A stretch of DNA of 64,000 nucleotides from Proteromonas lacertae (lineage: Eukaryota): positions 1-64,000 of the forward strand of contig NGBS01001185.1 of NCBI GenBank assembly GCA_002245135.1, written 5' to 3'. Below are positions 23,599 to 54,749 of the stretch, piece after piece. The position numbers and the translations under genes were made by a program. Each line of letters starts with the position of its first letter. The first letter of the stretch is position 1. The notes under the pieces are model-generated. The model ran no database searches and had not been told where the DNA came from. It saw nothing but the letters and a program-made list of their open reading frames with translations.

Positions 23599-24447
23599 CT
23601 TATGATTGTGAGATTTAAATTCTACTATTATTTCTTTAGTATAATCAACCTTAACACAAAAATTACAGCTTTATTTCAAAAACAAACAACAAAACTAGTA
23701 GAAATGCAATTCTTAATCAACCAAAATTTCCCCCAAATACCCCTTTATTTTATTATTAAAAAAGAATTATTGAGGATAATCTATCAACACTATGTAGTAT
23801 TCTATACAAGAAGAAAAATAAATATGTGTATAAATAGCACATCTAAGATCTGTCTAAAAGAACATCTTCACTATATTTTAATTCTAGCACCACTCTGTCT
23901 TTGTATATTAATCATAAAACCACATAATAATATTTCTTATTCATCTATTAAATAAGGAGCTTAAAAAATAAAAAATTTAAAATCATTCAAACTTAAGGTT
24001 TGCTTTGTGAAAATGTTTTGTTTATTTTTTCATTAAATAAACATATTATTACGAAAATAATTGGAGGTCCTAAATGCAGATATTATGCACTTTTGTTTGG
24101 ACATCAATTTTAAAACTAATGTCAAAATGAATTAATCATAAGTAAACGAAATTCACAGATAGTTTCAGAAACTCTTAATTACTTATCTATATCTTGAAGA
24201 AATTTAATATAAAGGCTGTAACGCCACTAGAAATAGGGTGTTAAAAATTTGAACAGCCGTTCTAAAAAAATGTCCTCCTTTTTCAGATATAATATAAATA
24301 CTAATATCCAAAATTTTTTGGATATAACATACAGTTTTGATATTGAAAAAAAAACATATGATTTAAATGATAGTTATTAATAATCATATCAATTGAAGGT
24401 TTTAGACACAAAGATATTCCAGTCTTTTTAATAGCATTATTTATTCT

Positions 24448-24690
24448 TTAATAATTGTCAAGCGAACTGATGCATTTGTTTAATATTCTATTTTTATAGT
24501 AAAGTTTTAGGGAAGCTATAGTGCCTTGATCCAAAGGTTGTAAAAATGAAGTAGAATTTGGAGGAAGATATAATATATCAACATTTTTATAATTTGAAAT
24601 ACGAGGATAACCAGAAAAATTATCCATTATTAGTAGAATTCTTTGATTTTTATATTGTTCAGGTATATTAAGAATTAAATATATTTTAAT
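24448..24690 (-). pseudogene. pogo/Tigger-type DDE_1 transposase fragment
   Basis: ILLIMDNFSGY...ILYLPPNSTSFLQPLDQGTIASLK, the typical pogo-family motif. Confidence 0.85.
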
Positions 24691-25118
24691 ATCCTTTTTC
24701 AATTTAAAAATGTATTTTGGAACACCATATTCTATAACACTTCAATGTCACATATTAAGAAAAATTAGAATCAATATTTTGAATTAACTACTTCAATTGA
24801 TATGTGTTTGTTTAGGATCTAACTTAACATAATTAAAAAAACTCTTTAGTTACAAAATAAAACAGACAAATATATATTAATAATAATAACTCATAAAAAT
24901 GAGAATATAACATATATATACTAATTAGCGTATTTATATTCGCATTTTTAAAAAAAATAAAAATCAAGCCTTCAAGCTTTTTCTTCTTTTTCTTTTTTGA
25001 TTTTGCAAAACACCAGAGAAATATTTGTTAATAAATGTATCTCAAAAAGTTGATCAATATTCAAACATACAAAATAAACAATACAAAGAAAATTGTTGAA
25101 ATTATTGTAAGTAATTAC

Positions 25119-25810
25119 TCACTCAGACTTCTTTTGAACTACACCTACCTTCGCTGCTCGCAATACTCGATTGTTGAGCTTATAACCAATGCTAATAACT
25201 TGACCCACTCTATCTGCTTCAACCTTATCACTTGGCATATTAAACAATGCATCATGTATTTTAGGATCAAATACATCTCCAATTTCACAATATTTTATGA
25301 TTTTGTTTGATTTCAATACACTATCTAAATCTTTTGAAATCAGCTTTATTCCATCTACAAATTGAATACAGTCCTATTTTATGAATATTATATTATATTA
25401 TATTATACTCCTTCTATCTTCTTTGGTATGTTTAATAGAGCTAAATCAAAAGCATCAAACACTGGTAATAAATCTTTCACTAACGTTTTAACTCCATACA
25501 AACGAGCTTCACTTACATCATTCTTTGCTATTTTACGAGTATTCTCCATCTCAGCTAATAAACGAACATTTCACTTCTGTTTCTTTGGGGAGCATATATA
25601 CATCTTTCATTTCAATTACATTCATTATTTTCTACTTCATCAGCAAAACTTAGATAATAGAACGAAGGAATTGTGTTAAACATTCTTGAATAGTGACTAA
25701 AGTAAACAAATTTACATCCATTCTATGCATCATGATTAGCTCTACACACTCTCCTAATCTAAACAATAGAAGATTAATAATACAATTTTTATTGAAGAAA
25801 AATAATTCAT
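25119..25810 (-). pseudogene. grpE: GrpE pseudogene (internal deletion, premature TGA)
   Basis: 3' part is nearly identical to 40340-40825. The 5' part is diverged, has an in-frame TGA after ENNECN and has lost the intron-2 region. Confidence 0.85.
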
Positions 25811-25861
25811 TTAATTATTTGAAACGGATAAGATTTAGAAACATCAAACTTAAGTTTGAAA

Positions 25862-28800
25862 ATGTTTTTGAGAAATTCTTCGGAAGATGATGTGTTATCC
25901 TCATTATTACCTTCTGATATAAAAGTATATTAGTAAATATTATTTTATAGATAAAAGATAGGGTTGAAAAGAGTAATTCTGAGATAGTTTTTGTCACATA
26001 TCATCAAATTGATATGAAAAGGAGCAAATTAATAGATGTTAGTGGAGTGAAAGAGAAGAATATATTCAGATTCTTAGATAATAACTGTTTATTAGGTGAT
26101 TGTTTCTGTTTTGTATTTACATTTCAAATACATGTTTTCGGGTGTAATGTGATGATAATAGAAAGAATGTACTATATGAGAGATTTAGAAGAGATTATTA
26201 AGAGTGAGAGAATATCAAATGATGATATTTTGAGTTTATTATGTGGATTATGTAATATTACGATGATATTATATGAAAATGGTATAGTAGTTGAGAATAT
26301 GAAGAGTAGTAATGTAATATATGAAAGTGATAATAATGTAAAGTTATGTGATTTATTCTTGAATGAATTGAGAAATGAAGAAGATATGAAGATTTACGAT
26401 GTGTGTTTCAAAAGTCCAGAAGAGTTGAATGGTTTAGAATATAATGATCGAAGTGTGATTTGGTCAATTGGTTGTATATTATATGAAATGATTTGTAAGA
26501 AATTAGCATTTGATGAAGATAGGAATATGTTTAAAACTCTAGTAAATATATTATTGTGCAAATATAATAGAGAGTTAATAAAAGATGGTATAATGAAAGA
26601 AATGATTGATAGAATGTTAAAAGTGAGAAATGAAGATAGATTGAGTTTAAAAGAATTGAGAAAAGAAATGATAAAGATGAGTGAAATGTTGAAAGATGAT
26701 GATAATAATTTAGTGATAGTAAGAGAAAGAAAAGAAATGTTATTGAATAATGATTTAGAATTAGAAATATCACCATTTAATATTCAAGCAGAATATTATC
26801 TCCAATATAATAAAAGGGAAGATATTCGAGATAGATTAATAGAGTGTTATAATGTTAAGTTAAATGAAAGAGTATTATCAGTGTTAATAATGATGAAATT
26901 AAATAAAAAAGATCAATCAATAAAGAAAAAAATGAAATTTCAAATTTCTCACCAGTATGATGTAGATATAGAATTTTACTTAGATGAACTGATATTTAAT
27001 ATATATATAGATGATAAAGAAAGATTGGCAATTAGACCAAATTGTTTATGCTATTGTAAGGAAGGAATGAATTATTTCTTCAGAATATTGAAACTGATTA
27101 ATCCAATATATCTGTGGTTCACTGATATTAGTAGAATCATAATTCAGAATCAACCATTATTTGCAACATATTTTAATCAATTATCAAATTTGCAGCATTT
27201 ATTTTTTAGGACATGTAATCTTACTGCTGATTTCATTGAATCATTTGTTAAATCAATTCCATTAATGATGAAACTGAAATACATATATATTGAAAGTACT
27301 TTAAGTATTTATTATAATAAAATAGGTAATCCAATTGGCTTAAAAGGCTTCAAATTGTTACTTCCATATTTACATTTTTTAATCAACAAAGACAACGAAT
27401 TGAATATTAGAAAAATGAATTTAAATGATGAATCAATGATATTTTTATCAGAAGAATTATATAAATATCCACGACTTAAGAAGATAGATATTAGAGACAA
27501 CAATGGCATTCATTCAATCGGATTAAAATTCTTATTTTGTAAATTCCCTATTTCAAAAATATCATTTGATTTTAATGGAAGTAAAGAATTATTGATAGAT
27601 AAAGACATTCCTGAATTACTTGGTTCAATCAACTTACTTTATTCTTTACATTTAAATGAATTAAAAATTGATGATAAAATTTTCAAATCGTTTATTTCAT
27701 TAAGAAGAAATGAATTTAAAGAAATGAAAAAGTTAGATTTGTGTAGTATAATATGTTATTTTTCTATTATTTAGATAATAAACTAACATACAGAAGCGTA
27801 AGATTACTGATTAAGAATATGTTTTTATTTTCAAATCTTACATATCTATGCTTGCGTGGGAATGGAATTGGAGATGAAGGAATGAAAATATTATCTTCCC
27901 ATTTATATATACTCAAAGATGATGACAATTCACTTGATTTTTCAAGTATAATAATAATCGTTTATAATATAATAGACATGGGATTATCTTCAATTGGGCT
28001 AAAATATGTATTAGATGGTTTAAAGAATACTGATGAAGATATAAAACTGAATGTAAGTGAAAATAATATCGATTCAATTGGAGTAGAATATCTGATGAAA
28101 TATCTAAAAGAAAATGATAGTATTGAAAGATTATCCATTCACAGTATATATTTTGTTTTAATTATGTGTTTAATAGATAATCCAATTGGTAATGTTGGAT
28201 TTAGATTGTTATTGAAGAATTTTGATTTGTTAATAAATGATGATAATGAGATAAATTTGAATAATGTCTCAATAGATGATGAAAGTGTTTTATTATTAGT
28301 AAATAAACTAGATTCATTAGAAGGATGTAAGACAATACATCTAAAAGGAAATAATATCAGAATGAAAGGGATAAAATCAATCTGTTCAAAATCATTAGAA
28401 AGAGATGAATATCCATTTATTGAAATGAAATGTTCATCATGGACAAATGAAGAATTGGAATATTATTTGAATTATTGTATTAAAAAGAAAAGAAATGATG
28501 ATAAGAATTATGATTTATCAAGTATAAATTATTATTCATGTATAATGAAATAGATGTGAATATTAATGATGATGATATTTCCTTGATTAAGCAGATAGAT
28601 TATAGAATAGTTGATTTATCGAATAATCATATAAGCTTTAAAGGATTTAACGAATTAATGAATTCATTGTCAAAAAATATACATAATATTGTAATTAATA
28701 ATAATGAAATTGGAGATGAAGGAATAGAGATAATATGTAAATATTTAGATATATTTGTCAAAAATGATAATATGAGTAATACATCATTATTAAATCTTTC

Positions 28801-29143
28801 AAGTATTATATTAAGATAATATAATTTAATAATTTGAATAGATATTGGAATGAGTAAAAAGGGATTAAAAATGTTAATAGAAAGATTAAACAAATATAAA
28901 CTATTAGAAAAGATGGATATATCAGGAAATGAATTAGATGAAAGAGAATTAAGATTAATGAGAAAGAATAAAATAATATTTGAGATATTAAAAGAAATAT
29001 CAATAACAATGACAGAAAATATAGATCAATCAAAATTAAAATCATTTTTATATACATTTTCATCAATTGGGAGAATCAAATTAAATGGAATATCAGAAGA
29101 AGAAGAAAAAGAATTATCAAATCAATTCTTTAACATTGAATAA
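25862..29143 (+). CDS. Pseudokinase-LRR family copy 2 (apparently intact)
   Basis: MFLRNSSEDD.. exon, intron 25925-25950, kinase fold (VVENMKSSN, KLCDL, FKSPEEL, WSIGCILYEM), then LRR exons separated by phase-1 introns at 27296-27325, 27746-27774, 27946-27975, 28144-28176, 28522-28553, 28803-28841. Confidence 0.9.
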
Positions 29144-29214
29144 TAAATTACTCTATTATACTTATTATGTATTTGATAATGTTATGTTGTTTTTTGTTCA
29201 TGAGACATAAACAT

Positions 29215-29508
29215 AAGGAATTGTGTTAAACATTCTTGAATAGTGACTAAAGTAAACAAATTTATATCCATTCTATGCAGCATAATTAGCTCTACACACT
29301 CTCCTAATCTAAACAATAGAAGATTAATAATACAGTTTTTATTGAAGTAAAATAATTCATTTAATTATTTGAAACGGATAAGATTTAGAAACATCAAACT
29401 TAAGCTTGAAAATGTTTTTGAGAAATTCTTCGGAAGATGATGTGTTATCCTCATTATTACCTTCTGATATAAAAGTATATTAGTAAATATTATTTTATAG
29501 ATAAAAGA
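29215..29508 (+). repeat. Direct duplicate of 25665-25958 (GrpE 5' fragment + kinase-LRR exon 1 and intron 1)
   Basis: Near-identical sequence at a constant offset of 3550 bp. Confidence 0.92.
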
Positions 29509-32243
29509 AAGAAACGAAAAGAGCGTAAATGAAGTTGATCTTGTTGTAGAACATGAAAGTGATGTGAAGATGATAAAAATCTTGAATGCATGTTGTATAG
29601 ATGATAATAAAATATTAAAGTTCTGTGAAAATAACAGCTTGTTGTCAGATTATTGCTCCTTTTTATGTTATCCATTAGATGTTCAAATGCTCGGATATAA
29701 TATGATTGTGTTAGAAAGAATGTACTATATGAGAGATTTAGAAGAGATTATTAAGAGTGAGAGAATATCCAATGCTGAAATCTGTAGTGTGATATGTGGA
29801 TTATGTAATCTTATGATGATATTAAATGAAAATGGTATAGTAGTTGATAATTTGAAGAGTAGTAATGTAATATATGAAAATTATGATGAAATAAAGTTAT
29901 GTGATTTATACTTGAATATGTTGAGAAAAAAAGATGAATTGAGAGTGTATGATATCTGCTTCAAAAGTCCAGAAGAGTTGAGTGGATTAGAATATAATGA
30001 TCGAAGTGTGATTTGGTCAATTGGATGTATATTATATGAAATGATTTGTAAGAAATTAGCATTTAATGAAGATAATAATATGGATAAAACCAAAGATAAT
30101 ATTGTGAGAGGTGAATTTAGTGTTGATGTAGAATGTGATGAATTGATGAAAGAGATGATACACAGAATGTTAATAGTGAAAAATGAAGATAGATTGAGTT
30201 TAACTGAGTTAAGAAAAGAAATGATAAAGATGAATAAAAAATTAAAAGATGAAGAAGATAATGTGATGATATGTGAAGAAAGAAAGGAAATAGTGTGCAA
30301 TAATGATTATGTGATAGTAATGTGCCCAATTGTAACTTTTAAATCAAAATATTATGTGGAGCTGAACAAAAGAGAAAGTATATATAATGTGTTAGTAATA
30401 TTATTGAATAGAAATTCAAGAATATTTGATAAGATTATACAATAGAAAAGCAGATGAAAGAATCATGTCAATATTGTTGATGATGAAAGTATGTAAAGGA
30501 GATAATTCAATAAAAGATAAAGTGAAATTTCAGATTGGTCATAAATGTAAAGATAATAGAGGTTGTTATTTAGATGAAAAGATATTTAATATTTATAAAG
30601 TCAGATGTGATAAAGAAATAATCAAAATTGACATAGGATGTGTATGTATTTGTGAAGAAGGAATGGATTATTTCTTCAGAATATTGAAATTGATTAATCC
30701 AACAAAATTGAGATTTGGTATAATTGATATTGTTATTATTTCTTTAGGTGATTATGGATTTAATATTCCAAGCCAATATCAACATTATTTGTATCATTAT
30801 TATCTGAAATACCAAATGTACAAGAATTATATTTAATATCCTGCAATTTAAGTAGTTATTTCATTGAATCCTTGATAAGTGCAATTCCATATATGAAAGT
30901 GAAATATATAGATCTTCGCTGTATTTATATTTCTTATATTATATTGAAATAGGTAATGCGATAGGTGAAAACGGTTTGAAAATATTGCTTCCATATTTAC
31001 ATTTATTAATTAACAATAGAAATGAATTATATCTAACTGGAATGAATTTGAATGATGAATCAATGATGTTATTATCATCAGAATTATATAAATATCCAAA
31101 TGTCAAGAAAATCGATATTAGATGTAATAATGTTTATTCGAAAGGATTAAAATCCTTGTTTTCTCAATTTCCTATATCCAAAATAGACTTTGATTTTAAT
31201 GAAAGTAAAGAATTACTGATAGACAAAGACATTCCCGAATTAGTAGAATACATCAAAGATCATAATTACTTAAATTTGAGTAATTCAGAAATAGATGATA
31301 ATATTTTAAAATCATTCATCTCTTTAAGATTGAATGAGTTGAGAGGAATAGAAAAGTTAGATTTGAGTAGTATAATAGTATAATATTATTGTTTTATTTA
31401 GATAATAAATTGACAGATAAAAGTATGGAAGTACTGATTAACAATCTGTGTTCATTCTGGTGTATTTATCACATTCAATTGAATGGAAACTTGATAGGAG
31501 ATAAAGGAATGAAAATATTATCTTCCCATTTATATATACTCAAAGATGATGATAATTCACTTGATTTTTCAAGTATAATAATAATCGTTTATAATATAAT
31601 AGACATGGGATTATCTTCAATTGGGTTAAAATATGTATTAGATGGTTTAAAGAATACTGATGAAGATATAAAACTGAATGTAAGTGAAAATAATATTGAT
31701 TCAATTGGAGTAGAATATCTGATGAAATATCTAAAAGAAAATGATAATATTGAAAGATTATCCATTCACAGTATATATTTTGTTTTAATTATGTGTTTAA
31801 TAGATAATCCAATTGGTAATGTTGGATTTAGATTGTTATTGAAGAATTTTGATTTGTTAATAAATGATGATAATGAGATAAACTTGAGTAAAATATCAAT
31901 AGATGATGAAAGTGCTTTATTATTAACAAAAGAAATACATCATAGTGGGAGATGTAAAACAATAAATCTAAAAGGAAATAATATCAGAATGAAAGGGATA
32001 AAATCAATATGTTCAAAATCATTAGAAAATAAATATTATCCCTTAATAGAAATGAAATGTTCATTATGGACAAATGAAGAAATGAAATACTATTTGAATT
32101 ATTGTAGAAAGAATAAAGTAAAATATTCTTGGATACTTTTACTAAGCTTACATGAACAAATAATGTTATTCTTGTCAGAACTAATGCTAATGTTATTACC
32201 AGTAGTAGCACTTTATCAAAGACTTATGAAAGAAGATATTTAA
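29412..32243 (+). CDS. Pseudokinase-LRR family copy 3 (last LRR exons replaced by an unrelated tail; 1-nt frameshift near 30783)
   Basis: VVDNLKSSN kinase fold plus LRR exons. Near-identical to the inverted copy at 45709-48460. Confidence 0.82.
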
Positions 32244-32454
32244 TTATTAATATTATATTTTTTAAACATAATTTTTATATATCATCATTAGCTTGAATAA
32301 TAGACAAGCCTAATTCAAAATTGAAAATAGAATATTTATCATTATAATCAGACGCTATGTTAATTACCATCTTTATAACTCCTTTATTTGAAATTGAAAA
32401 TGAATAGCTTGAATAGAGTAATCAAGCTAGTACATGTTTTAAAGTTTAATAATT

Positions 32455-32810
32455 CATTATATAGGAAGTAATTTCATTTTATATATGTGTAATATTAATA
32501 TTATATTTGTATACTTATATGTAGTTTACATTATTTCCTTGTAAAGTTATGCAATTATGAAAATCAGAATCTAGCTATATTAAAGTAAATCATAAAGGTT
32601 AATACTGCCAATTAGGTTATTTATAAAACATGAGATAACATAATATTCTGTTAGTTTCAATTAATTTCATTTATTCCTTTTAAAGCAATGCTATTCCTTT
32701 AGTCATGTAATATATAATTTATATAAGCTAAGTAGACAATTATTACAAAAATTTCTAATCAATAGAAAAAACATATTCTAAATTTATGAAAAACTAATTT
32801 TGAAAAAAAC
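32455..32810 (+). repeat. Dispersed non-coding repeat, copy 3
   Basis: Collinear with 2340-2730. Confidence 0.7.
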
Positions 32811-32876
32811 GACAAAAGTATATAATAAAAAGAATAATAGTTATCACACTTTTTAATTTCCTTCTTAATACCTTTA

Positions 32877-33682
32877 TTATTGATTATCATGATATTCTGT
32901 AATTATTATAGCATACACCAATAATATTAAAAATAAGAATAACAAAGCTACCATTATTCCTATTACAAAATATCCATTAATATTGTGTATTATCATGAAT
33001 ACAGTTACGTATATCAAAAGCGATGAATATATCATTATCCTTGTATTATTATCATAATTATTATTCCTAAAATTCATCATATCTCTAAAATTTGCAACAT
33101 AATCCAGTATAAAATTTCTTCTATTCACATTATTCTGACGAACATTATTAATAATACGTCTAATATAATTTGATATTAATCTGTTGAATGCCAAAGCTAA
33201 AATATGATTATTGATAATATTATTTTGCATTACTGACATAATTAGAAACATTATAATATTTCTTACATCGTTATTATTTATCACTTTCATTCCTGCTATA
33301 ATCCCAATTAATATTATATTATTAAGAAAATCATTATCAAATAATTCATTCAAATTATTAACAGCTGCTAATGTTATAAATAGCAATATTAATAATATAA
33401 ATCTGCTAATGTCTATTTGATGTATTGGGATTAGATCAGCAGCATGATTAATAACAACATCTGCATAATTATTACCATCACCTCCATCACCTCCATCATC
33501 TCCATCTCTGTTACCATTACCATTACCATCATCATGATAAAGTTATAACTATCTCTTACTCTTTGATCTTCCCTACCAGGCTGATTAGTAGTGAACTTTG
33601 AATTTGTATAGTTCTTAGTAAAAAATGTATGATAAACAATATTTATCTCATGCTGAATACAATATATACCAAACATTTCCAT
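32877..33682 (-). CDS. Hypothetical multi-pass membrane protein (Asn/Ile-rich), likely one gene across a 1-nt shift near 33540
   Basis: The frame of ORF 32877-33386 extends upstream through DDGNGNGNRDGDDGG. Several hydrophobic segments. No recognisable family. Confidence 0.35.
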
Positions 33683-34241
33683 CTTCTATATCAAAATAAA
33701 AAGATTTGATCAGTTCATACAATTTCAAATAAAATTGGGAGAGACAAATGTATACTATCGAATGAATTGAATTTATCATAAAAGAAAGTAGAAAATTGAA
33801 TAAAAGAATATATGATATTTAAGAGGTGTAATAGTGATTTGGTATTGCTATAATGATGTAGTTTTACTATTTTTAGTAGAGAAAATGCAATGTTCGAAGA
33901 TATAAAAATGCTGAAATTATTGGATGATAATATTGATGAAATACTGTATTAGATTTTTATTGGAGATAAATAAATCGTTCACTATTATCAAACAGTTATG
34001 TTTGAATAATACTCAGTTGTATATATAGTATTCCAAATAAAAGGTGATGAAGATAGTTTTATGACGCAAAATTGTAAGTGTTCAAATTTAATATATTGAC
34101 TCAAGCCAGATAAAACTACAAATGTTGGTTTAATTCATAAAAAATTCATTATTGTCGTTATGATCTGCATATATAGCTGCTATAAAAGCGTGAGCATCTT
34201 ATTGTCATTCTGTTGGCTGATCAGAATATGTTTTTAGTATC

Positions 34242-34279
34242 AAATTGGAGATAAATAGGCGTATATTTATCTCCAATTT
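34242..34279. other. Perfect 16-bp hairpin
   Basis: AAATTGGAGATAAATA-GGCGTA-TATTTATCTCCAATTT. Confidence 0.8.
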
Positions 34280-34344
34280 TGTCATTTGTCATAATAGCAC
34301 ATTTATCTCCTTTTGAACTGTTGTTTGTGAATAAAATATAATTT

Positions 34345-34553
34345 ACATACTTAAAGAAATGAAAATAATGAAAGAAAAGAGTAATATTTTTGAATATTTA
34401 GATGAATTGTTGATAACAGCAAAAGAGAATATAGATAAATCATAATTAAAACATTTTTTAGAAATGTTTTCATCAATTGGAATAATAAAACTAGATCGAA
34501 TATCAGAAGAAGGAAAAAAAGAATTATCAAAAGAATTCTTCAATATTAAATAA
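34345..34553 (+). pseudogene. Orphan 3' terminal fragment of a pseudokinase-LRR gene
   Basis: IFEYLDELLITAKENIDKS*LKHFLEMFSSIGIIKLDRISEEGKKELSKEFFNIK* matches the last exon of copies 1, 2 and 4. Confidence 0.8.
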
Positions 34554-34929
34554 TTGATTGTATTGTTATTATAATTAATTTTCTATTGATGTATTTGTCT
34601 ATTTAATAGTAAAATAATGAAAAACAAAGAAATCAAAACGAATATATTTTTGATATTTAATCAAACTATCAAATCAAGCTTAATAATGTTTTAAATTTAT
34701 GTTAGTATTGCGTAATGCAGAAGTAGTTTAGAAGTGTATTACAGCTTATTTGAGATAATAAATTCAAAGAAAGATTATTATATAATAGAATTATAGATAT
34801 AAATAGAATGTTACTCAGAGAATATTATATGAAGGTTATTTAGTAATGAATTCTGTTAATTATGAAAATGCATAGATAGTCAAAATCATACTAAATGAAT
34901 GTATTTTACGAAATACAGAACAACTCTCC

Positions 34930-35637
34930 TCTCCATTTGAACATTTAAGTGTATGGACAGAAGTGTTACAAGATACAATGTTAGATTTATTCGATTGTGG
35001 AAAATTAGACTGTGCTTCAGCAGTATCTTTATCCTTATCTCCAAAAGGATTCGAAAGATTCTATGCGAATTTACCAAAATATGAAAAGAAAATAATCTTA
35101 AGACCTCAAGCAATAGCTAACCATGCTGAATGTGTTCGAAGACTAGGAGTAATAGCAATGAATACTCCATTAGAAGTAGATATCTATGCTCATGCAAACA
35201 GTAGTTTAATAGGTGGAACTCGAATGGTAAATGGTTTAGGAGGTTCAGGTGATTTCTTACGTAATTCTTATCTATCAATAATGCATACTCCGTCAGTACG
35301 AAAATCTAAGAATGATCCTCATGGTATCAGTTGTATAGTTCCAATGTGTTCTCATATTGACCATACAGAGCATGATTTAGATGTAATCGTCACTGAACAA
35401 GGTGTAGCTGATTGTCGAGGTTTAGGTCCACGACAGAGAGCAAAAGAAATCATCAGCCATTGTGCTCATCCTGAGTATAAAGAACAATTGTTAGAATATT
35501 ACAATATGGCTGAGAAAGATTGTTGTAGTAAAGGAATTGGTCATGAGCCAGTATTATTTGATTTGGTTCATAAAATGCATTTGAATTTGAGTAAGAATGG
35601 AACAATGAAATTGAAAAGTTGGAGTGATAAAGTTTAA
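34930..35637 (+). pseudogene. 5'-truncated duplicate of acetate:succinate CoA-transferase
   Basis: Reverse complement of 48667-49374. About 290 N-terminal codons are missing. Confidence 0.9.
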
Positions 35638-35771
35638 AAATTGAAAATGATGTACTGTATGACATTTTGCTAATAGTTATATATATTTGTGTTTGTTTAT
35701 AAGAATGAAAAAATAAAAAATAAAGATAATGAAACGATAAAATATTTATAAATAATTAATCCGTTACAAAA

Positions 35772-38700
35772 ATGAAATTGATAGATAAAATATTAAAATC
35801 ACTATTATTATGTGATATGAAAGTATTATTTGATTGTAATTTTGATAGATAAAAGAAAGAAACGAAAAGAGCGTAAATGAAGTAGATGTAGTAGTAAAAC
35901 ATGAAAGTGATAATAGAATGATAAAAATCTTGAATGCATGTTGTATAGATGATAATAAAATATTAAAGTTCTGTGAAAATAACAGCTTGTTGTCAGATTA
36001 TTGCTCCTTTTTATGTTATCCATTAGATGTTCAAATGCTCGGATATAATATGATTGTGTTAGAAAGAATGTACTATATGAGAGATTTAGAAGAGATTATT
36101 AAGAGTGAGAGAATATCCAATGCTGAAATCTGTAGTGTGATATGTGGATTATGTAATCTTATGATGATATTAAATGAAAATGGTATAGTAGTTGATAATT
36201 TGAAGAGTAGTAATGTAATATATGAAAATTATGATGAAATAAAGTTATGTGATTTATACTTGAATATGTTGAGAAAAAAAGATGAATTGAGAGTGTATGA
36301 TATCTGCTTCAAAAGTCCAGAAGAGTTGAGTGAATTAGAATATAATGATCGAAGTGTGATTTGGTCAATTGGTTGTATATTATATGAAATGATTTGTAAG
36401 AAATTAGCATTTAATGAAGATAGGAATATGTTTAAAACTCTAGTAAATATATTATTTTGCAAATATAATAGAGAGTTAATAAAAGATGGTATAATGAAAG
36501 AAATGATTGATAGAATGTTAAAAGTGAGAAATGAAGATAGATTGAGTTTAAAAGAATTGAGAAAAGAAATGATAAAGATGAGTGAAATGTTGAAAGATGA
36601 TGATAATAATTTAGTGATATTAAGAGAAAGAAAAGAGATGTTATTGAATAATGATTTAGAATTAGAAATATCAAGATTTAATGTTTTATCAGACTATTGT
36701 TTCGAATATAACAAATATGAAAGTATAAAGAATTGTTATTATTTTAATAGATATTCGAGATGATTTAATAGAATGTTACAATCGTAAAGCTAATGATAGA
36801 GTATTATCAGTGTTATTAATGATGAAATTGTACAATGCGGATAAATCAATAAAAGATAAAATGATGTTTGCAGTAAATCACAAATGTGAAGAAAAATGTA
36901 ATTTAGATGAGAAGATATTTGGGATAGAAATTTATAGAAGTGATAAAGAAAGATTAAAAATATGTGATGGATGTGTTTGTGTTTGTGAAGAAGGAATTGA
37001 ATATTTATTTAAAATATTGAAGTTGATTAATCCAAGAAAAATAAGGTTTGATGATATTAGAATCCCAATTCAGAATCAACTATTATTTGGATCATTATTT
37101 TCTGATTTATCCAACCTTCAAATATTATGTTTACATTCATGTAATCTTACATGTGATTTCATTGAATCATTTGTTAAATCAATTCAGTTGATTAAATTAG
37201 AATATATTCATATTTATTGTATTTATTATTATATCATTATATATTTAATTTCAAAATAGTTAATCCAATTGGTTCAAAAGGCATCAAATTATTGCTTCCA
37301 TATCTACATCTATTGATTAATAGAAACAATGAATTGTATCTTAATGGATTATATTTAGATGATGAATCAATGATATTATTATCGAAAGAAATATCAAAAT
37401 ATCCAAATGTTAAGAAGATCGATATTAAAAACAATTGTATTATAAGCTCAGCTGGGTTAAAGTGTTTATTCTCCAAGTTTCCAATTTCAAAAATCAAATT
37501 TGATTTTAACGAAAGAATAGATTTATTAATAGATAAAGACATTCCCGAATTGATTAACTATGTAATATATTATGGTGTGATGTATTTGAATGATTTATGT
37601 ATTGATGATGATTTTTTCCAGTCGTTTGTATCATTAAGATTAAATGAATTTAAAGAAATGAAAAAGTTAGATTTGAGAAGTATAATTTGTTATTTTTCTA
37701 TAATTTAGATAATAAACTGTCATACAAAAGTGTAGAAATACTGATAAACAATTTATCTTCATTTCCAATACTTAGAAGAGTTGAATTAGATATAAATGAA
37801 ATAGGAGATTTAGGAATGAAAATATTAACTCCTCACTTACGATTACTAATAGATAGTAATAATGGAATATATTGTTCAAGTATAATAATTATTATGTAAT
37901 ATTAAATAGACATGGGATTATCTTCAACTGGATTAAAATATATATTAGATGGTTTAAAGAATATTAGTCGAAAAATCAGATTAGTTGATGTTAGTGATAA
38001 TAAAATCGATTCAGATGGTGTAAAATATTTGATGAATTATATGGAAGAAAAAGATAATATAGAAAAATTAGGCATTTATAGTATATATTATTTTGTTATT
38101 TAATGTTACTGAAATAGACAATCCAATTAGTAATATCGGATTTAAATTATTATTAAAGAAAATAAATGTGATAATATATGATGATGAAATGAATTTGAGT
38201 AATATATCAATAGATGATGAAAGTGTGATACTATTAGGAAATGAAATAGATTCAGTTGAAGAATGTAAAATAATATATTTAAATGGAAACAATATTCACA
38301 TGAATGGATTAAAATTCATATGTTCCAAATCATTAGAAAAAGAAGAATATCCATTTATTGAAATAAATAATTCATTATGGAGAAATGAAGAACTGGAGTA
38401 TTATTTGAATTATTGTATAAAAAAGAAAAGAATAGATTATAGAATCTATGATTTTTCTAGTATTTGATTATAATTTTTAATGAAATAGATTTAAGCGTGA
38501 ATGATTCTCATATCTCATTAATTAAAGATATAAATTATGAAGAACTTGATTTGTCAAATAACAAAATCAGTATAAAAGGATTTAAAGACTTAACAGATTC
38601 TTTACCAAATGATGTTCTTTATATTTCAATTTATAATAATGAAATTAGTGATGAAGGAATGGAAATAATATGTAAAAATTTCGACATATTTGTTAAATAT

Positions 38701-39233
38701 CCATTATCCTTATATCTCTCCAGTATTTTTATAATTTTATAATTTGAATAGATATTGGAATGAGTGAAAAAGGTTTGAAAATGTTAATAGAAAGATTAAA
38801 AGATTATATACCATTAAGAAAGATAGATATATCAAAAAATGAATTAAATGAAAGAGAATTGATGTTAATGAAAGAAAATGATAAAATATTTAAAGATTTA
38901 GATGAGTTATCAATAAGTTTAAAAGAAGATATAGATAAATCCGAAGTAAAATCATTCTTAGAAACATTTTCTTCAATTAGAATAATCAAATTAGATGGAA
39001 TAAGTGAAGAAGAAAAGAAAGAATTATCAAAAGAATATGTGAATATTGAACAATATACAGAACATCAAGAACGAAAGATAACAGTTCGAGATGAATATGA
39101 AGAACATGATTTTTTAAAAGCCAGAAATGTAATTTCTTTTGATGTTACAAAGATAAGAGAATTACAAAAACTTGCAAATGATTTAAAAAATGGAGTTGTA
39201 TTTGGAAGAAAAATGAAACATATGAGAGAATAA
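35772..39233 (+). CDS. Pseudokinase-LRR family copy 4 (mosaic, extended C-terminus)
   Basis: MKLIDKILKS.. exon, intron 35823-35848, kinase fold and a full LRR exon set. Reads through the usual stop position (NIE-CAA). Confidence 0.88.
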
Positions 39234-39659
39234 ACATATAAAATCATTTGCTTCCAAATAATATATCCAAATTATGTGAATTTTGCTAATAATATTGTTC
39301 ATAATAATTCTTCTTCCTTCTGCGTTTATATTTTTTAATTAACGATAATTTTGTAGTTTTTTCACATAATCTACATATAGAATGTTCTTTTTTTCACATA
39401 ATTAAGGTATAATACCATTGCTGTTATATAGTTTATAATAATTATTATACCTTAATTGAAATAATACATGCATGTTGTTTTACAAGAGTATCTTAGTGCA
39501 AAATATCTATACTCATCAATAAAAAGAAATATAAAAATTATTTTGATCAAGCATTAAGTTTGAATGAAATTGATAATATTTAACGTCTGAAATTTTATCC
39601 AATAGAATTCTTTTGCTCGAGCACATTTCTAGTTAAAGAAACTAATCAACGAAGAAAAG

Positions 39660-40027
39660 ATGTCCGGTGAAAACAACAAAAACACTTTGCCATTAGCCTC
39701 TGAAGCTAATGCACACCAAGAATCAAAGTATATTAACAAATTATTTAACATGATTATAGCAAAGGATCTTCTACTAATAATCAAATCAAAAGAAAATCCG
39801 ATGCTGTTCAAGATGCATTCAAATTTCCTCCAACTAAGAAAAGTAAACAAGATACAAGAATGGAGGAATCAAGTTCAGATCATGCTATGGAGGAATCAAG
39901 TTCAGATCATGCTATGGAGGAATCAAGTTCAGATCATGCTATGGAGGAATCAAGTTCAGATCATGCTATGGAAGAATCTAGTTCAGATCAAGATAATAGA
40001 CCGCCTCATCTCAGAAAAAGAAAATAA
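39660..40027 (+). CDS. Small protein with MEESSSDHA repeats and basic (NLS-like) motifs
   Basis: Intron 39728-39759 shifts the frame to ..IKRKSDAVQDAFKFPPTKKSKQDTR(MEESSSDHA)4MEESSSDQDNRPPHLRKRK*. Confidence 0.6.
39860..39990 (+). repeat. 27-bp coding minisatellite, about 4.8 copies
   Basis: ATGGAGGAATCAAGTTCAGATCATGCT repeated in tandem. Confidence 0.95.
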
Positions 40028-40339
40028 ACTTAGCTAAATTATGGATATGCAGAAAACGTGTAAAAATTGATAATAAATATCATAAGAAGATGTAATACGA
40101 TTAGCTGGTGAGCAATGAGTTCGATTCTGCTTTTGATTTGGGATATTACATCAAACTAAAAATAAAATTGACGTGTTTGAAATAGTTAAATATTTCTAAA
40201 CATCAATCTTAAGCTTTACAAGGATTTCGATATATTCTTTTTAAAATAATTAGTTATCCTCTATCATCATCGAAATAACATTCAAACATACAAAATAAAC
40301 AATACAAAGAAAATTGTTGAAATTATTGTAAGTAATTAC

Positions 40340-41179
40340 TCACTCAGACTTCTTTTGAACTACACCTACCTTCGCTGCTCGCAATACTCGATTGTTGAGC
40401 TTATAACCAATGCTAATAACTTGACCCACTCTATCTGCTTCAACCTTATCACTTGGCATATTAAACAATGCATCATGTATTTTAGGATCAAATACATCTC
40501 CAATTTCACAATATTTTATGATTTTGTTTGATTTCAATACACTATCTAAATCTTTTGAAATCAGCTTTATTCCATCTACAAATTGAATACAGTCCTATTT
40601 TATGAATATTATATTATATTATATTATATTATATTATATTATATTATATTATATTATATTATATTATACTCCTTCTATCTTCTTTGGTATGTTTAATAGA
40701 GCTAAATCAAAAGCATCAAACACTGGTAATAAATCTTTCACTAACGTTTTAACTCCATACAAACGAGCTTCACTTACATCATTCTTTGCTATTTTACGAG
40801 TATTCTCCATTTCAGCTAATAAACGAAGATTTTGATCTTTCATTCTTTTCAGCTAAATATAATAGCATAATAATAATATACATCATTTTCTAATTCGGTT
40901 ACCTTATTTTTTAATTCAACTTTCTCAGCATCTTCTTCTTTCACTTCAGTTTCTTTTGATGCTTCTGTAGATGATTGATTTCCCTTACATTCACTATTTT
41001 CTACTTCATCAGCAAAACTTCGATAAAAGAATGAAGGAATAGTGTTAAACATTCTTGAATAGTGACTAAAGTAAACAGATTTACATCCATTCAATGCAGC
41101 ATGATTAGTTCTGCATACTCTCGCAATCTAAACAATAAAAGATTAATAATACAGTTTTTATTGAAGAAAAATAATTCAT
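40340..41179 (-). CDS. grpE: Mitochondrial-type GrpE (Mge1) nucleotide-exchange factor with N-terminal presequence
   Basis: Spliced (3 introns): MNYFSSIKTIARVCRTNH...FYRSFADE, LRLLAEMENTRK, DLLPVFDAFDLAL, FDPKIHDAL, GYKLNNRVLRAAKVGV. Confidence 0.93.
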
Positions 41180-41294
41180 TTAATTATTTGAAACGGATAG
41201 ATATTTTGAAATTGTTTCATTTAATTATAGAAAAGCAATGATAATGAATTAACACCTCCAAAGAAATATGCTAAAAGCAAATAAAATAAACAAA

Positions 41295-42430
41295 TTATTT
41301 CGTTTCTTCCAACATCAATTCTTTCATTTCTTCTTCTTCTTCTTCTACTAAAGGCTGTTGTTGTTTTTTAATTTCTTCATTACTCTTAGTTTCTGATTTT
41401 GGTTTTGGTGACCCTAAAGGTATAGTTATTTTCTGTAGATTTATATCAACAGATTTGTCACTATCACTATCACTTTCACTTTTTTCATCTTCTTTCTTAT
41501 CAACATGTTGTTCTTCTTTTTTAATTTCTTCCTTTTTAATAATATTTTTATTCTTCTCTTTTATTTCTTCTCCTTCTTTTACTTTCTTTTTCTTAACTAA
41601 TCTACCAATCTTATTACTCTTTACATCAAATAATATTTTTATCTTTCCTTGTGCTTTTTTATCTACATATACTTTTTTTAATAGTTCATTTGAATAACAA
41701 TGAATTATATCTTTATGCTTTACCATCTATTTCAAATATTTAAAAAGAAATCAATACTATTTCTTTCATTTTTCTATGATTATTTTCATCATATTCTTTA
41801 GGTAATTCATTCAGTTTCATTTTCCCATCACTTATCTCTTTCGCTACTTTAAATGCATCTTTCCATTTCTGCAACGTTCTATTTGTATCCTATTTAATAA
41901 TTAATTAATTAATTAGATAATTATATAAATACTGGATCAGATTTAGGTATTTGAAATCTGTATATTCTTTCATTTGCAATCTTTGCATCATCCCAATCAT
42001 GATGTTTACTAAATGGATTTTCTACACGAAATCGTATTGTAAATGTGTTTATTCCTTCTAGCACTACTTCTCCTTTCAAATTAGATATTGGTATTGATTG
42101 TTTTTCATTAATGTACATATTGTGTGTTGAACATGGTAGCATTTTTTCAAATATTTTGAATGTTGGATTTGGATAGTTGTTATCTATACACATTTTGTAT
42201 AATACACAATATCTCTCCTATGTTATACATTATAATATTTTATTATACTTGAAACTTGCCAAATACTCTTTTTCTTCCTTCTTTTAAAAGAGGCCCCTCA
42301 AATAAAACATTTGAAGGGAATTTCTGTTCCACTTCTTTCATATTCCTATAAAACTCAATATTATTAAAAGTGTATACATATATTGAGGAAATCCATTAAA
42401 TACAGGCTGAGCTCCACAACAAAAATTCAT
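41295..42430 (-). CDS. PH-domain protein with N-terminal MNFCCG
   Basis: Spliced: FEGPLLKEGR..GKFQERYCVLY...EKQSIP...ERIYRF...LQKWKDAF. One probable homopolymer shift near 42270. Confidence 0.75.
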
Positions 42431-42511
42431 AATTTTAAAAATATTAGCCGTTATTCAATTATTGAAAGTGTAGTTTTACAGTGTTTCTAAACAGTAGAAA
42501 ATTATATAAAC

Positions 42512-45500
42512 ATGAGACTAATACTATGGAAGTATAGTTTTGTGATATATGTGATAATTTTTTCGTTACATGTTGACTTTGTGAAATCAAGAAAAACCGA
42601 ACTTAACACTTCATCCCATAATTTAACAAATATTGTTAATCACAAAAGACCTAGACTGCACGAAAAAGAAGAAATGACAATTAATAAAGTGAAGGAAAGT
42701 AAGGATGTTAATTCTGATTCAGAATTATTGATTAATCAGGTAAAATCAGGAAATATGAATAAAGGCAAATCCCACAATTTAAAAAGAAAATTGATAAAGT
42801 CAACTCAGGAGAATGATAATATGCTATTTAGTGAAAATGAAAGTATAGATCCACTATATACTTGTTATTATCCTATCAGATACTTAAGATTAGAGTGTTC
42901 CCAAACAAATTACATTCTAGAACCAGTGTTTGATGATGAAGACGAATCTACATATATAGAATATTCTATAAATCTCAATGATAACAAATATATCAAAATA
43001 ATCGATGAAAATAAAGGAAAAATATCAATTAGTCAGTTTGAAGTACAACCATTATCATTTATACAAATTACATGTTCTTATAAGGAAAATGAAGTGAATA
43101 AAACACTATTAGATGAATTAGAACTCAGTACAAACACAACCACATTTAACCTATTAATTGAAATTTTGTACAGTACAATTCCAACGGATATATTTCCATT
43201 ACAAATTCCAAAATATTTTGTAGCTGATAAGATAGTAAATGATCCATTTATATACGGTGTATTTTTCCCATTTTCAATTCCCAAAATCCCACTCACTGTA
43301 ATAAAGACATTGAAACATTCCACTTATTATTATGTTACAGATATTTTACAAACTACAATGATAATTGACCAATCAAAATACAAAGAAAATTATGGTGTTG
43401 CTGATTTTACATCCAAAATTTTGATTAAGACAATAAATGAACCAGAAACGGATATTTCAATTGTTACATTTATTATTAATACTTATACGATTGAAAGAGA
43501 ATATTCATATCTCATTTATAACTATAACAACAGCAATAATAATAATAATAATATCACATATATAAACCAATATAATATCACATTATCATTTGAATTTATT
43601 TCGTTGTTAAACATAAGTGATTTACAGTTTATCAGTTATTTTGAAGATGTGATATATAATAAATATTTCAAACAATTTCTATTGGATAATAATAATAATA
43701 ATACGATTGTAGATTGTTCATATAGTGAGAATAGTATGAATAACAGTTTTCCTCATTATACATTGAAATTTGAAGTTTCAATCACTCCAATTATCAGAAA
43801 TGAAACTGTAGAGAATAATAATTATAATTCAACAAGAAGAGTATTACAAAAGAAAGAAAAAGAAGAAGAAAAGTTGATAAATCAACCAATCTTCCAATTA
43901 CAATTAATCATTCAATCAATTCAATCAAATTTAACATTAAAAGACAAGAATAATCTGATTTTTCTCAACGCATTTCATTCAGATTATAAAATAACTGAAA
44001 TTCCGATATTTAATAACAATGAAAATGATAATGAAGAAGATCAAACCGAGTTTGAAGAAACACCAATACAATCATCATCCAATAGTAAGAAAGTGAATGT
44101 AGTAGCAATTTTAATACCAACAATTTTAGTAATAATAATTGTTATTATTGCAGCAGTAGTTATTTGGTATTTTTATTATTATAAGAGAAATAAATCTGAT
44201 AAATCTCAAGAAATGAACTTATTTGGAGTATATATATATATTCTTTATTGATATAGACATTTTCAAGTGTTTTTGATAGACATAAATCTTCAAAAGTGAG
44301 TGGTGATTATGATCCATATATTAAAGACAAAGTATTACATGAAGGATATTTGTGGAAAGAAGGGAGAAATAGAATTGCATATAAGTTTCAAGTATTTTTA
44401 TATTATTATTATTATTATTTTATAGAGAAGATATGTAGTCATATATAAAGAACCAGCAATAATGAGAGTATATGAATCAATGTGTCCAAGTTTCTATGGA
44501 AATGTTTATATTCATGAAAAACAATCAATTCCAATGGAATGTTTTCGATGTGTAGAAAGAGAAAGTCAAATTCAGTTTATGTGTCGATTTGCAGTACAAA
44601 ACGCACAGAAGAAACAAATGTCAGTTCCTGAACAAAATGGAATTTGTGAAGAAAGAATATTTCGATTTAAAAACAACGATACAAATATAGAAACAGCAAT
44701 AAAACAAACAGAAGAATGGATTCAAATACTTCGAGAATTTGAAAAACAAAATATTAGACCCAAACCAATTCAAGTTTGGTATGACAATCAAACATTAAAG
44801 AGAGATGTTGAAGAAAATAATAAGTTATTACCAGTTTCTACTCGTATATATTATTATTATCTATATTATATTTAGCAACATCAAAGCATAGTAGTGGAAG
44901 CGGTAATATAAGAGTATCTTCAGCAATAGCTTCAGCTTCAAGACGCAAAAGAGCCTTAGAGATAAAAAGACAATTACGAACTCCTCAAAGATTAGGACTG
45001 GCTTCCAATACTTTAGTTTCTACAAGAGGATCAGTTGGTTGTGAAATTGAATTAAACCAATTGCAAGATTATGATAGTGATACTTTTCGAACACCCAAAT
45101 ATTCTTCAATTACTCATGGAGGAAGAAATAGTGAATTGACGCTTCATGATTTACCTAATAATAATAATAATAATAGAATAAATAATCATTTTATATCTCC
45201 TACTCGATTATTTCAAAATAGAAGAAATAAGAGTAAAAACAATAACAACAATTTGAAGACAAAGAATAGTTTAAGTGGAACAAGTAGCGAAGAAGATAAT
45301 AATGATAATGATAATTATAGAAAGAAAGGATTAAGTGAAGGAGATAAATCAATATTACATCCATTTCTCCTGAAGAATCGAAATATCAATTTACCACCAA
45401 TTGCTCCATTAAAAACGCCAATTCCAACATTACAACAACAACAACAACAAATTCAAACAGAAAGAGATGTTGTGTATAGTTCAACAAAAAGTTCTCAATT

Positions 45501-45585
45501 AGTAAGTCGAAAACAAACACGAGATTATGAAGATAATGGTAAAATTGATTTAGATGATGATGATGGTGGTATAAGTGAGAAGTGA
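42512..45585 (+). CDS. Type-I membrane protein: signal peptide, ectodomain, TM helix, cytoplasmic PH domain, disordered tail
   Basis: Hydrophobic N-terminus, TM VVAILIPTILVIIIVIIAAVVIWYFYY-KR, PH motifs HEGYLWKEGR..KFQRRYVVIY..ERIFRF..EEWIQIL. Three short introns. Confidence 0.8.
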
Positions 45586-45708
45586 TGTAATATATCTGCA
45601 TATATGTATAGGATATAATATAATTTAAAATATTTAAATACATTTTATATGATTATAATATAATCATGATTGTTTTTATTTATATTATAAAAAATATAAT
45701 ATTAATAA

Positions 45709-48532
45709 TTAAATATCTTCTTTCATAAGTCTTTGATAAAGTGCTACTACTGGTAATAACATTATCATTAGTTCTGACAAGAATAACATTATTTGTTCAT
45801 GTAAGCTTAGTAAAAGTATCCAAGAATATTTTACTTTATTCTTTCTACAATAATTCAAATAGTATTTCATTTCTTCATTTGTCCATAATGAACATTTCAT
45901 TTCTATTAAGGGATAATATTTATTTTTTAATGATTTTGAACAGATTGATTTTATCCCTTTCATTCTTATGTTATTCTCTTTTAGATTTATTGTTTTACAT
46001 CTCCCACTATGATGTATTTCTTTTGTTAATAATAAAGCACTTTCATCATCTATTGATATTTTACTCAAGTTTATCTCATTATCATCATTTATTAACAAAT
46101 CAAAATTCTTCAATAACAATCTAAATCCAACATTACCAATTGGATTATCTATTAAACACATAATTAAAACAAAATATATATACTGTGAATGGATAATCTT
46201 TCAATATTATCATTTTCTTCTAGATATTTCATCAGATATTCTACTCCAATTGAATCAATATTATTTTCACTTACATTCAGTTTTATATCTTCATCAGTAT
46301 TCTTTAAACCATCTAATACATATTTTAGCCCAATTGAAGATAATCCCATGTCTATTATATTACAAACGATTATTATTATACTTGAAAAATCAAGTGAATT
46401 ATCATCATCTTTGAGTATATATAAATGGGAAGATAATATTTTCATTCCTTCATCTCCTATCAAGTTTCCATTCAATTGAATGTGATAAATACACCAGAAT
46501 GAACACAGATTGTTAATCAGTACTTCCATACTTTTATCTGTCAATTTATTATCTAAATAAAACAATAATATTATACTATTATACTACTCAAATCTAACTT
46601 TTCTATTCCTCTCAACTCATTCAATCTTAAAGAGATGAATGATTTTAAAATATTATCATCTATTTCTGAATTACTCAAATTTAAGTAATTATGATCTTTG
46701 ATGTATTCTACTAATTCGGGAATGTCTTTGTCTATCAGTAATTCTTTACTTTCATTAAAATCAAAGTCTATTTTGGAATAGGAAATTGGGAAAACAAGGA
46801 TTTTAATCCTTTCGAATAAACATTATTACATCTAATATCGATTTTCTTAACATTTGGATATTTATATAATTCTGATGATAATAACATCATTGATTCATCA
46901 TTCAAATTCATTCCAGTTAGATATAATTCATTTCTATTGTTAATTAATAAATGTAAATATGGAAGCAATATTTTCAAACCGTTTTCACCTATCGCATTAC
47001 CTATTTCAATATAATATAAGAAATATAAATACAGCGAAGATCTATATATTTCACTTTCATATATGGAATTGCACTTATCAAGGATTCAATGAAATAACTA
47101 CTTAAATTGCAGGATATTAAATATAATTCTTGTAGATTTGGTATTTCAGATAATAATGATACAAATAATGGTTGATATTGGCTTGGAATATTAAATCCAT
47201 AATCACCTAAAGAAATAATAACAATATCAATTATACCAAATCTCAATTTTGTTGGATTAATCAATTTCAATATTCTGAAGAAATAATCCATTCCTTCTTC
47301 ACAAATACATACACATCCTATGTCAATTTTGATTATTTCTTTATCACATCTGACTTTATAAATATTAAATATCTTTTCATCTAAATAACAACCTCTATTA
47401 TCTTTACATTTATGACCAATCTGAAATTTCACTTTATCTTTTATTGAATTATCTCCTTTACATACTTTCATCATCAACAATATTGACATGATTCTTTCAT
47501 CTGCTTTTCTATTGTATAATCTTATCAAATATTCTTGAATTTCTATTCAATAATATTACTAACACATTATATATACTTTCTCTTTTGTTCAGCTCCACAT
47601 AATATTTTGATTTAAAAGTTACAATTGGGCACATTACTATCACATAATCATTATTGCACACTATTTCCTTTCTTTCTTCACATATCATCACATTATCTTC
47701 TTCATCTTTTAATTTTTTATTCATCTTTATCATTTCTTTTCTTAACTCAAGTTAAACTCAATCTATCTTCATTTTTCACTATTAACATTCTGAATATCAT
47801 CTCTTTCATCAATTCATCACATTCTACATCAATACTAAATTCACCTCTCACAATATTATCTTTGGTTTTATCCATATTATTATCTTCATTAAATGCTAAT
47901 TTCTTACAAATCATTTCATACAATATACAACCAATTGACCAAATCATACTTCGATCATTATATTCTAATCCACTCAACTCTTCTGGGACTTTTGAAGCAG
48001 ATATCATACACTCTCAATTCATCTTTTTTTCTCAACATATTCAAGAATAAATCACATAACTTTATTTCATCATAATTATCATATATTACATTACTACTCT
48101 TCAAATTATCAACTACTATACCATTTTCATTTAATATCATCATAAGATTACATAATCCACATATCACACTACAGATTTCAGCATTGGATATTCTCTCACT
48201 CTTAATAATCTCTTCTAAATCTCTCATATAGTACATTCTTTCTAACACAATCATATTATATCCGAGCATTTGAACATCTAATGGATAACATAAAAAGGAG
48301 CAATAATCTGACAACAAGCTGTTATTTTCACTAAATTTTTGGATTTTAGTATCATCTATACAACATGCATTCAAGATTTTTATCATTCTATTATCACTTT
48401 CATGTTCTACAACAAGATCAACTTCATTTACGCTCTTTTCGTTTCTTTCTTTTATCTATCAAAATTACAATCAAATAATACTTTCATATCACATAATAAT
48501 AGTGATTTTAATATTTTATCTATCAATTTCAT
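45709..48532 (-). CDS. Pseudokinase-LRR family copy 5 (near-identical to copy 3 in body, exon 1 as in copy 4; frameshifts)
   Basis: Translations match copy 3. Single-base shifts near 47985, 47750 and 46770. Confidence 0.8.

Positions 48533-51199: not shown

Positions 51200-54749
<3,550 letters not shown>

Follow-up and report, generated by a model that had tools for sequence, protein, structure and literature searches.

We analysed a 64,000-nucleotide stretch of Proteromonas lacertae DNA (assembly GCA_002245135.1, contig NGBS01001185.1, positions 1 to 64,000; hereafter the window), which carries a family of genes joining a predicted pseudokinase to leucine-rich repeats (LRRs). A first-pass annotation had proposed five copies and an orphan last exon, and spliced gene models bore out their positions (Table 1). 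The encoded proteins consist of an N-terminal kinase fold, a linker of ~160 aa, and up to 22 ribonuclease-inhibitor-type (RI-type) LRRs. The window has a G+C content of 25% and was read with the standard code, and gene copies were spliced by coordinate. The five copies contain GT-AG introns of 26–41 nt (37 introns, median 30). The available sections of two Blastocystis genome papers describe a modal intron length of 30 nt and low-GC lineages (PMC5608401; PMC10690189). Intron 2 was missing from copies 1 and 2, and intron 3 from copies 2 and 4. We saw no enrichment of the Blastocystis polyadenylation motif, whose 10 matches were equalled in 8 of 100 shuffles.

The reading frames of copies 2 and 4 were open from start to stop, across all of the mosaic junctions described below. 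Copies 1, 2, and 4 were collinear over 22 repeats, with LRR exons of 168–468 nt encoding 2–7 repeats each. Copies 3 and 5 diverged from the family alignment after approximately repeat 15 and continued into an unrelated tail. Frameshifts were found in copies 1, 3, and 5, several of them single-base indels beside identical bases, a type common in long-read consensus errors. Two observations may speak against consensus error: two further near-identical duplications of the window, of 974 and 1144 bp, are free of indels, and a nearby ABC transporter gene carries two nonsense codons in addition to frameshifts. Copy 1 is either a pseudogene or a product of consensus errors. The frameshifts and the truncation of copies 3 and 5 had been absent from the first-pass annotation, as had the exon 1 and 5′ flank common to copies 2 and 3 and a seventh family fragment located in a Mutator-like element.

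The kinase domain matched the Pfam Pkinase profile (E 1.5e-17), and an AlphaFold model (predicted local distance difference test [pLDDT] 87) showed a kinase fold at residues 1–249 (Z 24.7, root mean square deviation 3.0, 238 residues aligned). This alignment-based model spans the first 448 residues only, and a single-sequence fold gave a pLDDT of just 33. The catalytic Asp of the HRD motif was replaced in all 16 family rows covering the site (14 Asn and 2 Ser). The β3 Lys was retained in 13 of 13 rows and the DFG Asp in 17 of 17, and the catalytic-loop Lys/Asn were also kept; these counts exclude two misaligned linker rows and rows gapped at the site. The Gly loop (GxGxxG) was missing in all five copies. 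By the usual sequence definition, the N-terminal domain is a pseudokinase, as had been predicted.

In the Asn-form pseudokinases JAK JH2, HER3, and plant ZED1/RKS1, the catalytic Asp is changed to Asn and the ATP-site Lys is kept. The window kinase, which we take to resemble the JAK JH2 and HER3 domains, has the same Asn and the same retained Lys. It differs in its fusion to LRRs and in the loss of the Gly loop, and the similarity shown is that of the fold. With the catalytic Asp changed to Asn and the ATP-site Lys kept, a non-catalytic regulatory role would be plausible by analogy. In a kinase tree, the family branched within a broader group of Asn-form kinases, one of which is encoded at 55246–55995. 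The kinase resembles Neks: the top Foldseek match was NEK7, although level with CDPK, MELK, and BRAF. A FastTree phylogeny with long branches placed the family kinase apart from named Neks and together with other Asn-form pseudokinases; firm NEK membership was dropped on these grounds. The linker was confidently folded from approximately residue 290 of the model onward. It gave no family match at Pfam cut-offs, its atlas matches scored below 0.9, and fold searches barely probed it.

The LRR region comprises 22 repeats, mostly of 25–30 aa (LRR_6, E 7.6e-8), and its best PDB sequence matches, at E 3e-4 to 1e-3, were ribonuclease inhibitor and LRR proteins of the NLR family. The six LRR introns of copy 2 all interrupt the motif at a single position and in phase 1; several of the exons measured 168–171 nt. 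RI/NLRP genes have a 171-nt exon, and the window family shares both the RI-type LRR and two-repeat exons of 168–171 nt with ribonuclease inhibitor and animal NLRs (NOD2 and NLRPs). Unlike animal NLRs, the family gave no NACHT or NB-ARC Pfam match, no P-loop or Walker A motif was found in any of the five copies, and no death-fold domain was detected in the family proteins. NLR membership was rejected because there is no STAND NTPase; the C-terminal LRR array is present, and the N-terminus, where NLRs carry an effector domain (CC, TIR, CARD, PYD, or kinase), is a pseudokinase. A hydropathy scan, run without a dedicated predictor, found neither a signal peptide nor a hydrophobic N-terminus, and the hydropathy peak of copies 1, 2, and 4 lies within the kinase fold. 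An LRR receptor-like kinase was likewise rejected on the reversed domain order and the lack of a hydrophobic N-terminus. The domain layout first proposed, including the absence of a signal peptide, was in agreement with the Pfam, fold-model, PDB, and hydropathy results.

The first-pass annotation had also inferred ectopic recombination or gene conversion among paralogues, which we assessed by sliding identity and by informative-site runs with 5000 permutations. Tract identities were 97–99.6%, introns included, within flanks of 65–85%, and the informative-site runs exceeded all 5000 permutations in the six triplets tested. From 5′ to 3′, copy 4 comprises a copy-5-type exon 1, a copy-3-type 5′ part of the kinase, a copy-2-type end of the kinase C-lobe, and then unique sequence. 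The switch lies in the conserved helix-F block, where it had been placed: the final copy-3-type site is 36413, copy-2-type sites start at 36423, and the crossover window is 36308–36422. The near-identity of copies 2 and 3 within the LRRs also held, at 97.6% over 422 columns with 10 mismatches (27877–28298 versus 31504–31925). Both introns inside this tract were identical and the two upstream introns were different, and four of the five differing codons were synonymous. Copy 5 has the body of copy 3 (98.9% over 2645 columns, 28 mismatches) preceded by the exon 1 and intron 1 of copy 4, so that there are two exon-1 types, one in copies 2 and 3, which also have the 5′ flank in common, and the other in copies 4 and 5. 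Because introns are identical within tracts and different outside them, the pattern probably reflects exchange at the DNA level rather than selection on the protein. Judged from these alignments, the tracts are in-register conversion and duplication tracts between paralogues.

The module shuffling originally suggested was not supported as a process aimed at the LRRs. The tracts are in register, with ends inside exons rather than at introns, crossovers in the most conserved blocks, and the repeat order unchanged; the kinase and exon 1 contain more of them than the LRRs do. Adjacent sequences of acetate:succinate CoA-transferase (ASCT) and GrpE genes were duplicated together with the family. At its start, the copy-4 unit has 710 bp from the 3′ end of ASCT, within a stretch of 974 bp (99.2%) in common with the start of copy 5, and a GrpE duplicate and a shorter GrpE piece (29215–29391) flank copies 2 and 3, respectively. 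Neighbouring RING, kinase, and ABC transporter genes have likewise undergone duplication or breakage. For these reasons, the exchange mechanism looks like a general duplication and rearrangement hotspot rather than a device targeting LRRs.

Selection was tested on four independent sequences with conversion tracts masked, using a likelihood profile and site models of our own. Concave LRR positions were assigned from the motif because the fold model does not extend over the LRR array. Purifying selection prevailed, with an overall ratio of nonsynonymous to synonymous rates (omega) of ~0.3–0.5: the Nei-Gojobori pooled omega was 0.46–0.63 by domain, the single-ratio maximum likelihood estimate was 0.30–0.34, and synonymous divergence (dS) between copies was ~0.6. 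Identity by LRR position class was 0.68 in the core, 0.54 at convex exposed positions, and 0.43 at concave x positions, the concave positions being less identical than the convex exposed ones (43% versus 54%, p 0.008). Concave LRR omega was ~0.55 versus 0.30. Comparison of M8 with M8a gave a p value of 0.0007 in the LRRs (0.0005–0.001 once gap-flanking codons were removed and double hits were allowed) and ~0.5 in the kinase plus linker, and M2a versus M1a in the LRRs gave only 0.025. The fast class (omega > 1) contained ~4% of LRR sites, made up of ~11% of those at concave positions and 3% of the rest. Concave positions accounted for 13 of the top 40 LRR sites against a share of 18% (p 0.016), and none of the 42 null simulations reached the observed site-model statistic. 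These comparisons of coding sequence lend modest support to diversifying selection on the LRRs. What was supported is faster change at concave positions and a modest site-model signal confined to the LRRs; mean concave omega was below 1.

Relatives were found mostly as fragments. Among the 150 matches listed in a HMMER scan, ~19 were exon-sized family fragments with ~33–59% identity. Family fragments in other assemblies agreed with the window copies in their dead motifs and in the sites of their introns, and the 10 looked up were all found only in Logan. One relative (P0148) has a single frame spanning the kinase and linker into the LRRs; the fusion is therefore not unique to the window. A word-index protein search found no full-length relative and returned three generic kinases, and a search of longer proteins gave generic kinases only, with ≤38% identity over long stretches, which is weak evidence. 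The locus was not found in two metagenome scans. Our search, confined to open-access literature, found no account of this family and none treating Blastocystis, leucine-rich repeats, and pseudokinases together. The words "LRR" and "leucine" are both missing from the main texts, supplements aside, of two Blastocystis genome papers (PMC10690189; PMC5608401). The family is new in its architecture, and its pattern, the birth and death of repeat-containing, receptor-like genes, is a familiar one.

The reading that we favour, at a probability of approximately 0.6, is that these genes form a lineage-restricted family that evolves by birth and death and encodes predicted cytosolic pseudokinase-LRR proteins. 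Their mosaic structure most likely stems from ordinary segmental duplication and in-register conversion, and the proteins are likely sensors or adaptors with variable partners on the concave face. Genes would arise and die through segmental duplication in a rearrangement hotspot, and, as the shape of the tracts suggests, paralogues would swap patches of 0.3–0.5 kb beginning in conserved blocks. From their domain content, the proteins would remain cytosolic, where the LRR horseshoe may bind a partner through its variable concave face and the pseudokinase may act as a non-catalytic, possibly nucleotide-binding switch or dock relaying a signal to an active partner. An anti-microbial role, as one version of this sensor reading, is tentative and well short of even odds.

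Several results weigh against this reading. The selection tests contained just four independent sequences, and no site was clearly above a posterior of 0.95. Non-concave LRR sites also gave a signal (p 0.006–0.009), and simulated site-rate variation alone produced a statistic of up to 8.4 compared with the observed 10.6. Mean concave omega was 0.5–0.6 with omega = 1 rejected, and relaxed constraint therefore accounts for part of the pattern. Three homologue clusters from 10–15 assemblies were nearly constant (7/121, 28/424, and 11/300 variable columns), with mostly conservative variation; clustering at 90% hides divergent alleles. Moreover, three of the five copies are frameshifted.

Among the alternatives, a true innate-immune receptor repertoire, equivalent in function to an NLR whose nucleotide-binding domain has given way to a pseudokinase, with recombination supplying the diversity to recognise viruses or bacteria, is doubtful though tenable. 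A predicted cytosolic signalling domain followed by C-terminal RI-type LRRs, the clustering, conversion, and pseudogenes, the LRR-restricted and concave-enriched selection signal, and the precedent in the stramenopile Ectocarpus (in the available sections of PMC3341825) are consistent with this proposal; it is opposed by the missing P-loop, a linker with no recognisable effector domain, the constant repeat order, tracts that do not concentrate in the LRRs, and the equal duplication of housekeeping neighbours. Its most specific form is more doubtful still: an NLR-like repertoire evolved independently in a Blastocystis-related gut protist, with a nucleotide-binding pseudokinase replacing the STAND domain, conversion for diversification, spread by Mutator elements, and an LRR face selected against gut viruses or bacteria. 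Virus and bacteria sensing by unicellular gut eukaryotes is largely unknown, and the family offers a concrete candidate: two of its genes are intact, its variable surface is defined, and public assemblies contain relatives.

A near-neutral by-product of an unstable, transposon-rich region is unlikely. Under this explanation, copies of a structural or scaffold LRR gene duplicate, convert, and decay, and exposed residues are simply less constrained, as the two truncated copies, the two further remnants, the frameshifts, the broken ABC transporter and kinase neighbours, and a mean omega below 1 in every class would suggest. It is countered by a dS of ~0.6 between copies under purifying selection, by the persistence of the same architecture in other assemblies, and by concave positions that change faster than convex exposed ones, with a site-model signal confined to the LRRs. 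Assembly or polishing artefacts that mixed paralogues or haplotypes, to which the single-base frameshifts and the 98.9% identity of copies 3 and 5 might point, are very improbable, since the 350–500-bp tracts lie within far more divergent flanks, hold 2–13 mismatches each, largely synonymous within the LRR tract, and leave the reading frames of copies 2 and 4 undisturbed, and since the other near-identical duplicates have no indels. Should the predicted sensors or adaptors have no immune role, the locus would still show clearly how a gene family and its promoters are reshaped by conversion, segmental duplication, and transposon capture.

The sensor or adaptor reading can be compared with protist repeat families, for which we cite the available sections of each source. 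Giardia Neks have a mostly inactive N-terminal kinase (139 of 195) followed by ankyrin repeats and no signal peptide, with recent duplicates of >98% identity and, in one subfamily, many pseudogenes; their function is unknown (PMC3218828). The window family likewise belongs to a gut protist and combines a predicted dead kinase N-terminal to a repeat array with near-identical duplicates and pseudogenes and no signal peptide; it differs in having RI-type LRRs rather than ankyrin repeats, in an unrelated lineage. A parallel between the two would point to a recurring solution. The ROCO-LRR and NB-ARC-TPR candidate receptor genes of Ectocarpus evolve by birth and death and have concave LRR residues under positive selection, one repeat per exon, and true exon shuffling, and their immune role was proposed without direct proof (PMC3341825). 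This is also a stramenopile system with a concave-face signal, but its GTPase or NB-ARC domain, one-repeat exons, and far stronger selection signals differ from the 2–7 repeats per exon and in-register exchange of the window copies. Tetrahymena has thousands of LRR genes with exact 90-bp phase-2 exons, variable repeat number, and some kinase fusions (PMC6564038). Same-phase introns, ectopic recombination or conversion, a transposon link, and mostly purifying selection are common to both protists, whereas the window family has phase-1 introns, exons of 168–468 nt, and a constant register. Of the traits of an exon-shuffled LRR family, we found same-phase introns at one repeat position, and neither exon reordering nor a change in repeat number; exon shuffling was ruled out by the collinear repeats and by tract ends inside exons.

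Table 1. Coordinates of the pseudokinase-LRR family, its mosaic tracts, and adjacent features in the window
Feature	Position	Strand	Remarks
Copy 1, pseudokinase-linker-22 LRR gene	2886–6171	-	9 exons; spliced model with 5 coding frameshifts and 0 in-frame nonsense codons
Copy 2	25862–29143	+	Intact, 8 exons, 1020 aa; kinase fold ~aa 22–270, linker to ~aa 406, 22 LRRs aa 407–1020
Copy 3	29412–32243	+	8 exons, ~871 aa; 1 frameshift near 30783; ends after ~LRR15, unrelated hydrophobic tail
Copy 4	35772–39233	+	Intact mosaic gene, 9 exons, 1070 aa
Copy 5	45709–48532	-	Inverted near-duplicate of copy 3 (98.9%) with the same truncation; exon 1 of copy-4 type; 3 frameshifts in the coding sequence
Orphan last-exon remnant	34344–34553	+	Internal stop codon
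Copy 4/copy 3 tract	35918–36422 (copy 3: 29570–30074)	+	505 columns, 2 mismatches, 99.6%
Copy 4/copy 2 tract	36308–36673 (copy 2: 26407–26772)	+	366 columns, 7 mismatches, 98.1%
Copy 2/copy 3 LRR9–13 tract, also in copy 5	27870–28298 (copy 3: ~31497–31925)	+	Two identical introns inside
Mutator-like transposon	20359–24286	-	Terminal inverted repeats of 419 bp (99.5%); target-site duplication of 9 bp, perfect; MULE/SWIM transposase 23670–21950
Decayed family fragment inside the Mutator-like element	21621–21912	+	Kinase C-lobe; nhmmer E 2e-12; 68% identity
Decayed GrpE duplicate, 5′ flank of copy 2	25056–25841	-	Original GrpE ~40340–41211
Duplicate of ASCT 3′ part, intergenic DNA, and exon 1	34927–35900	+	99.2% to copy 5 flank
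ASCT gene (intact), immediately upstream of copy 5	48667–50247	-	Protein search and tree

The family fragment carried by the Mutator-like element scored 75 bits in blastn compared with a maximum of 43 in 200 shuffles; a weaker piece matching the intron-2 acceptor had an E value of only 0.017. Since a decayed kinase piece lies within an element with near-identical terminal inverted repeats and a target-site duplication, the transposon likely moved a fragment of the pseudokinase-LRR family. In Pack-MULE capture, a host gene fragment lies between Mutator terminal inverted repeats flanked by a target-site duplication, and all three components were present here. Unlike typical Pack-MULEs, the window element also holds a transposase frame (weak MULE and SWIM matches). 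The element is a recent insertion and contains an internal tandem repeat (20701–21164), and a fragment of a DDE_1 (pogo-type) transposase lies beside it at 24451–24741.

The best named match of the ASCT protein was from Blastocystis sp. Blastoise (65%), with Logan proteins at 93% and 81%. In a quick ASCT tree, the window clade was sister to Blastoise plus a 220-member cluster (SH-aLRT 98), with Cantina outside. Judged from this one gene, the source organism is likely related to Blastocystis. A five-base tandem repeat in the GrpE intron accounts for a length difference of ~40 bp between the original (40590–40670) and the duplicate (25370–25410).

Two RING-domain genes (6325–11520) contain a 1144-bp inverted duplication (6325–7468 and 9106–10249, 99.8%) that begins 154 bp upstream of copy 1. 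A dispersed non-coding repeat occurs in three diverged copies (73–80%) at 698–828, 2325–2643, and 32445–32771; two of these lie just downstream of copies 1 and 3, and the repeat is possibly a small non-autonomous element. The ABC-C transporter gene (51050–54749) is interrupted by two in-frame stops and several frameshifts and has apparently lost an internal segment; it is either a pseudogene or a region of poor consensus. A tandem kinase pair (55246–57114, 77% DNA identity) has Asn at the catalytic position in the first member and Asp in the second; the latter is frameshifted, and an RI-like LRR piece (56932–57114) comes after it, which hints at a second kinase-LRR family. The window also encodes an LRR plus IQ-motif gene (11729–15356), a casein-kinase-1-like gene (~16900–17900), and a retinoblastoma-like gene (57897–60883).

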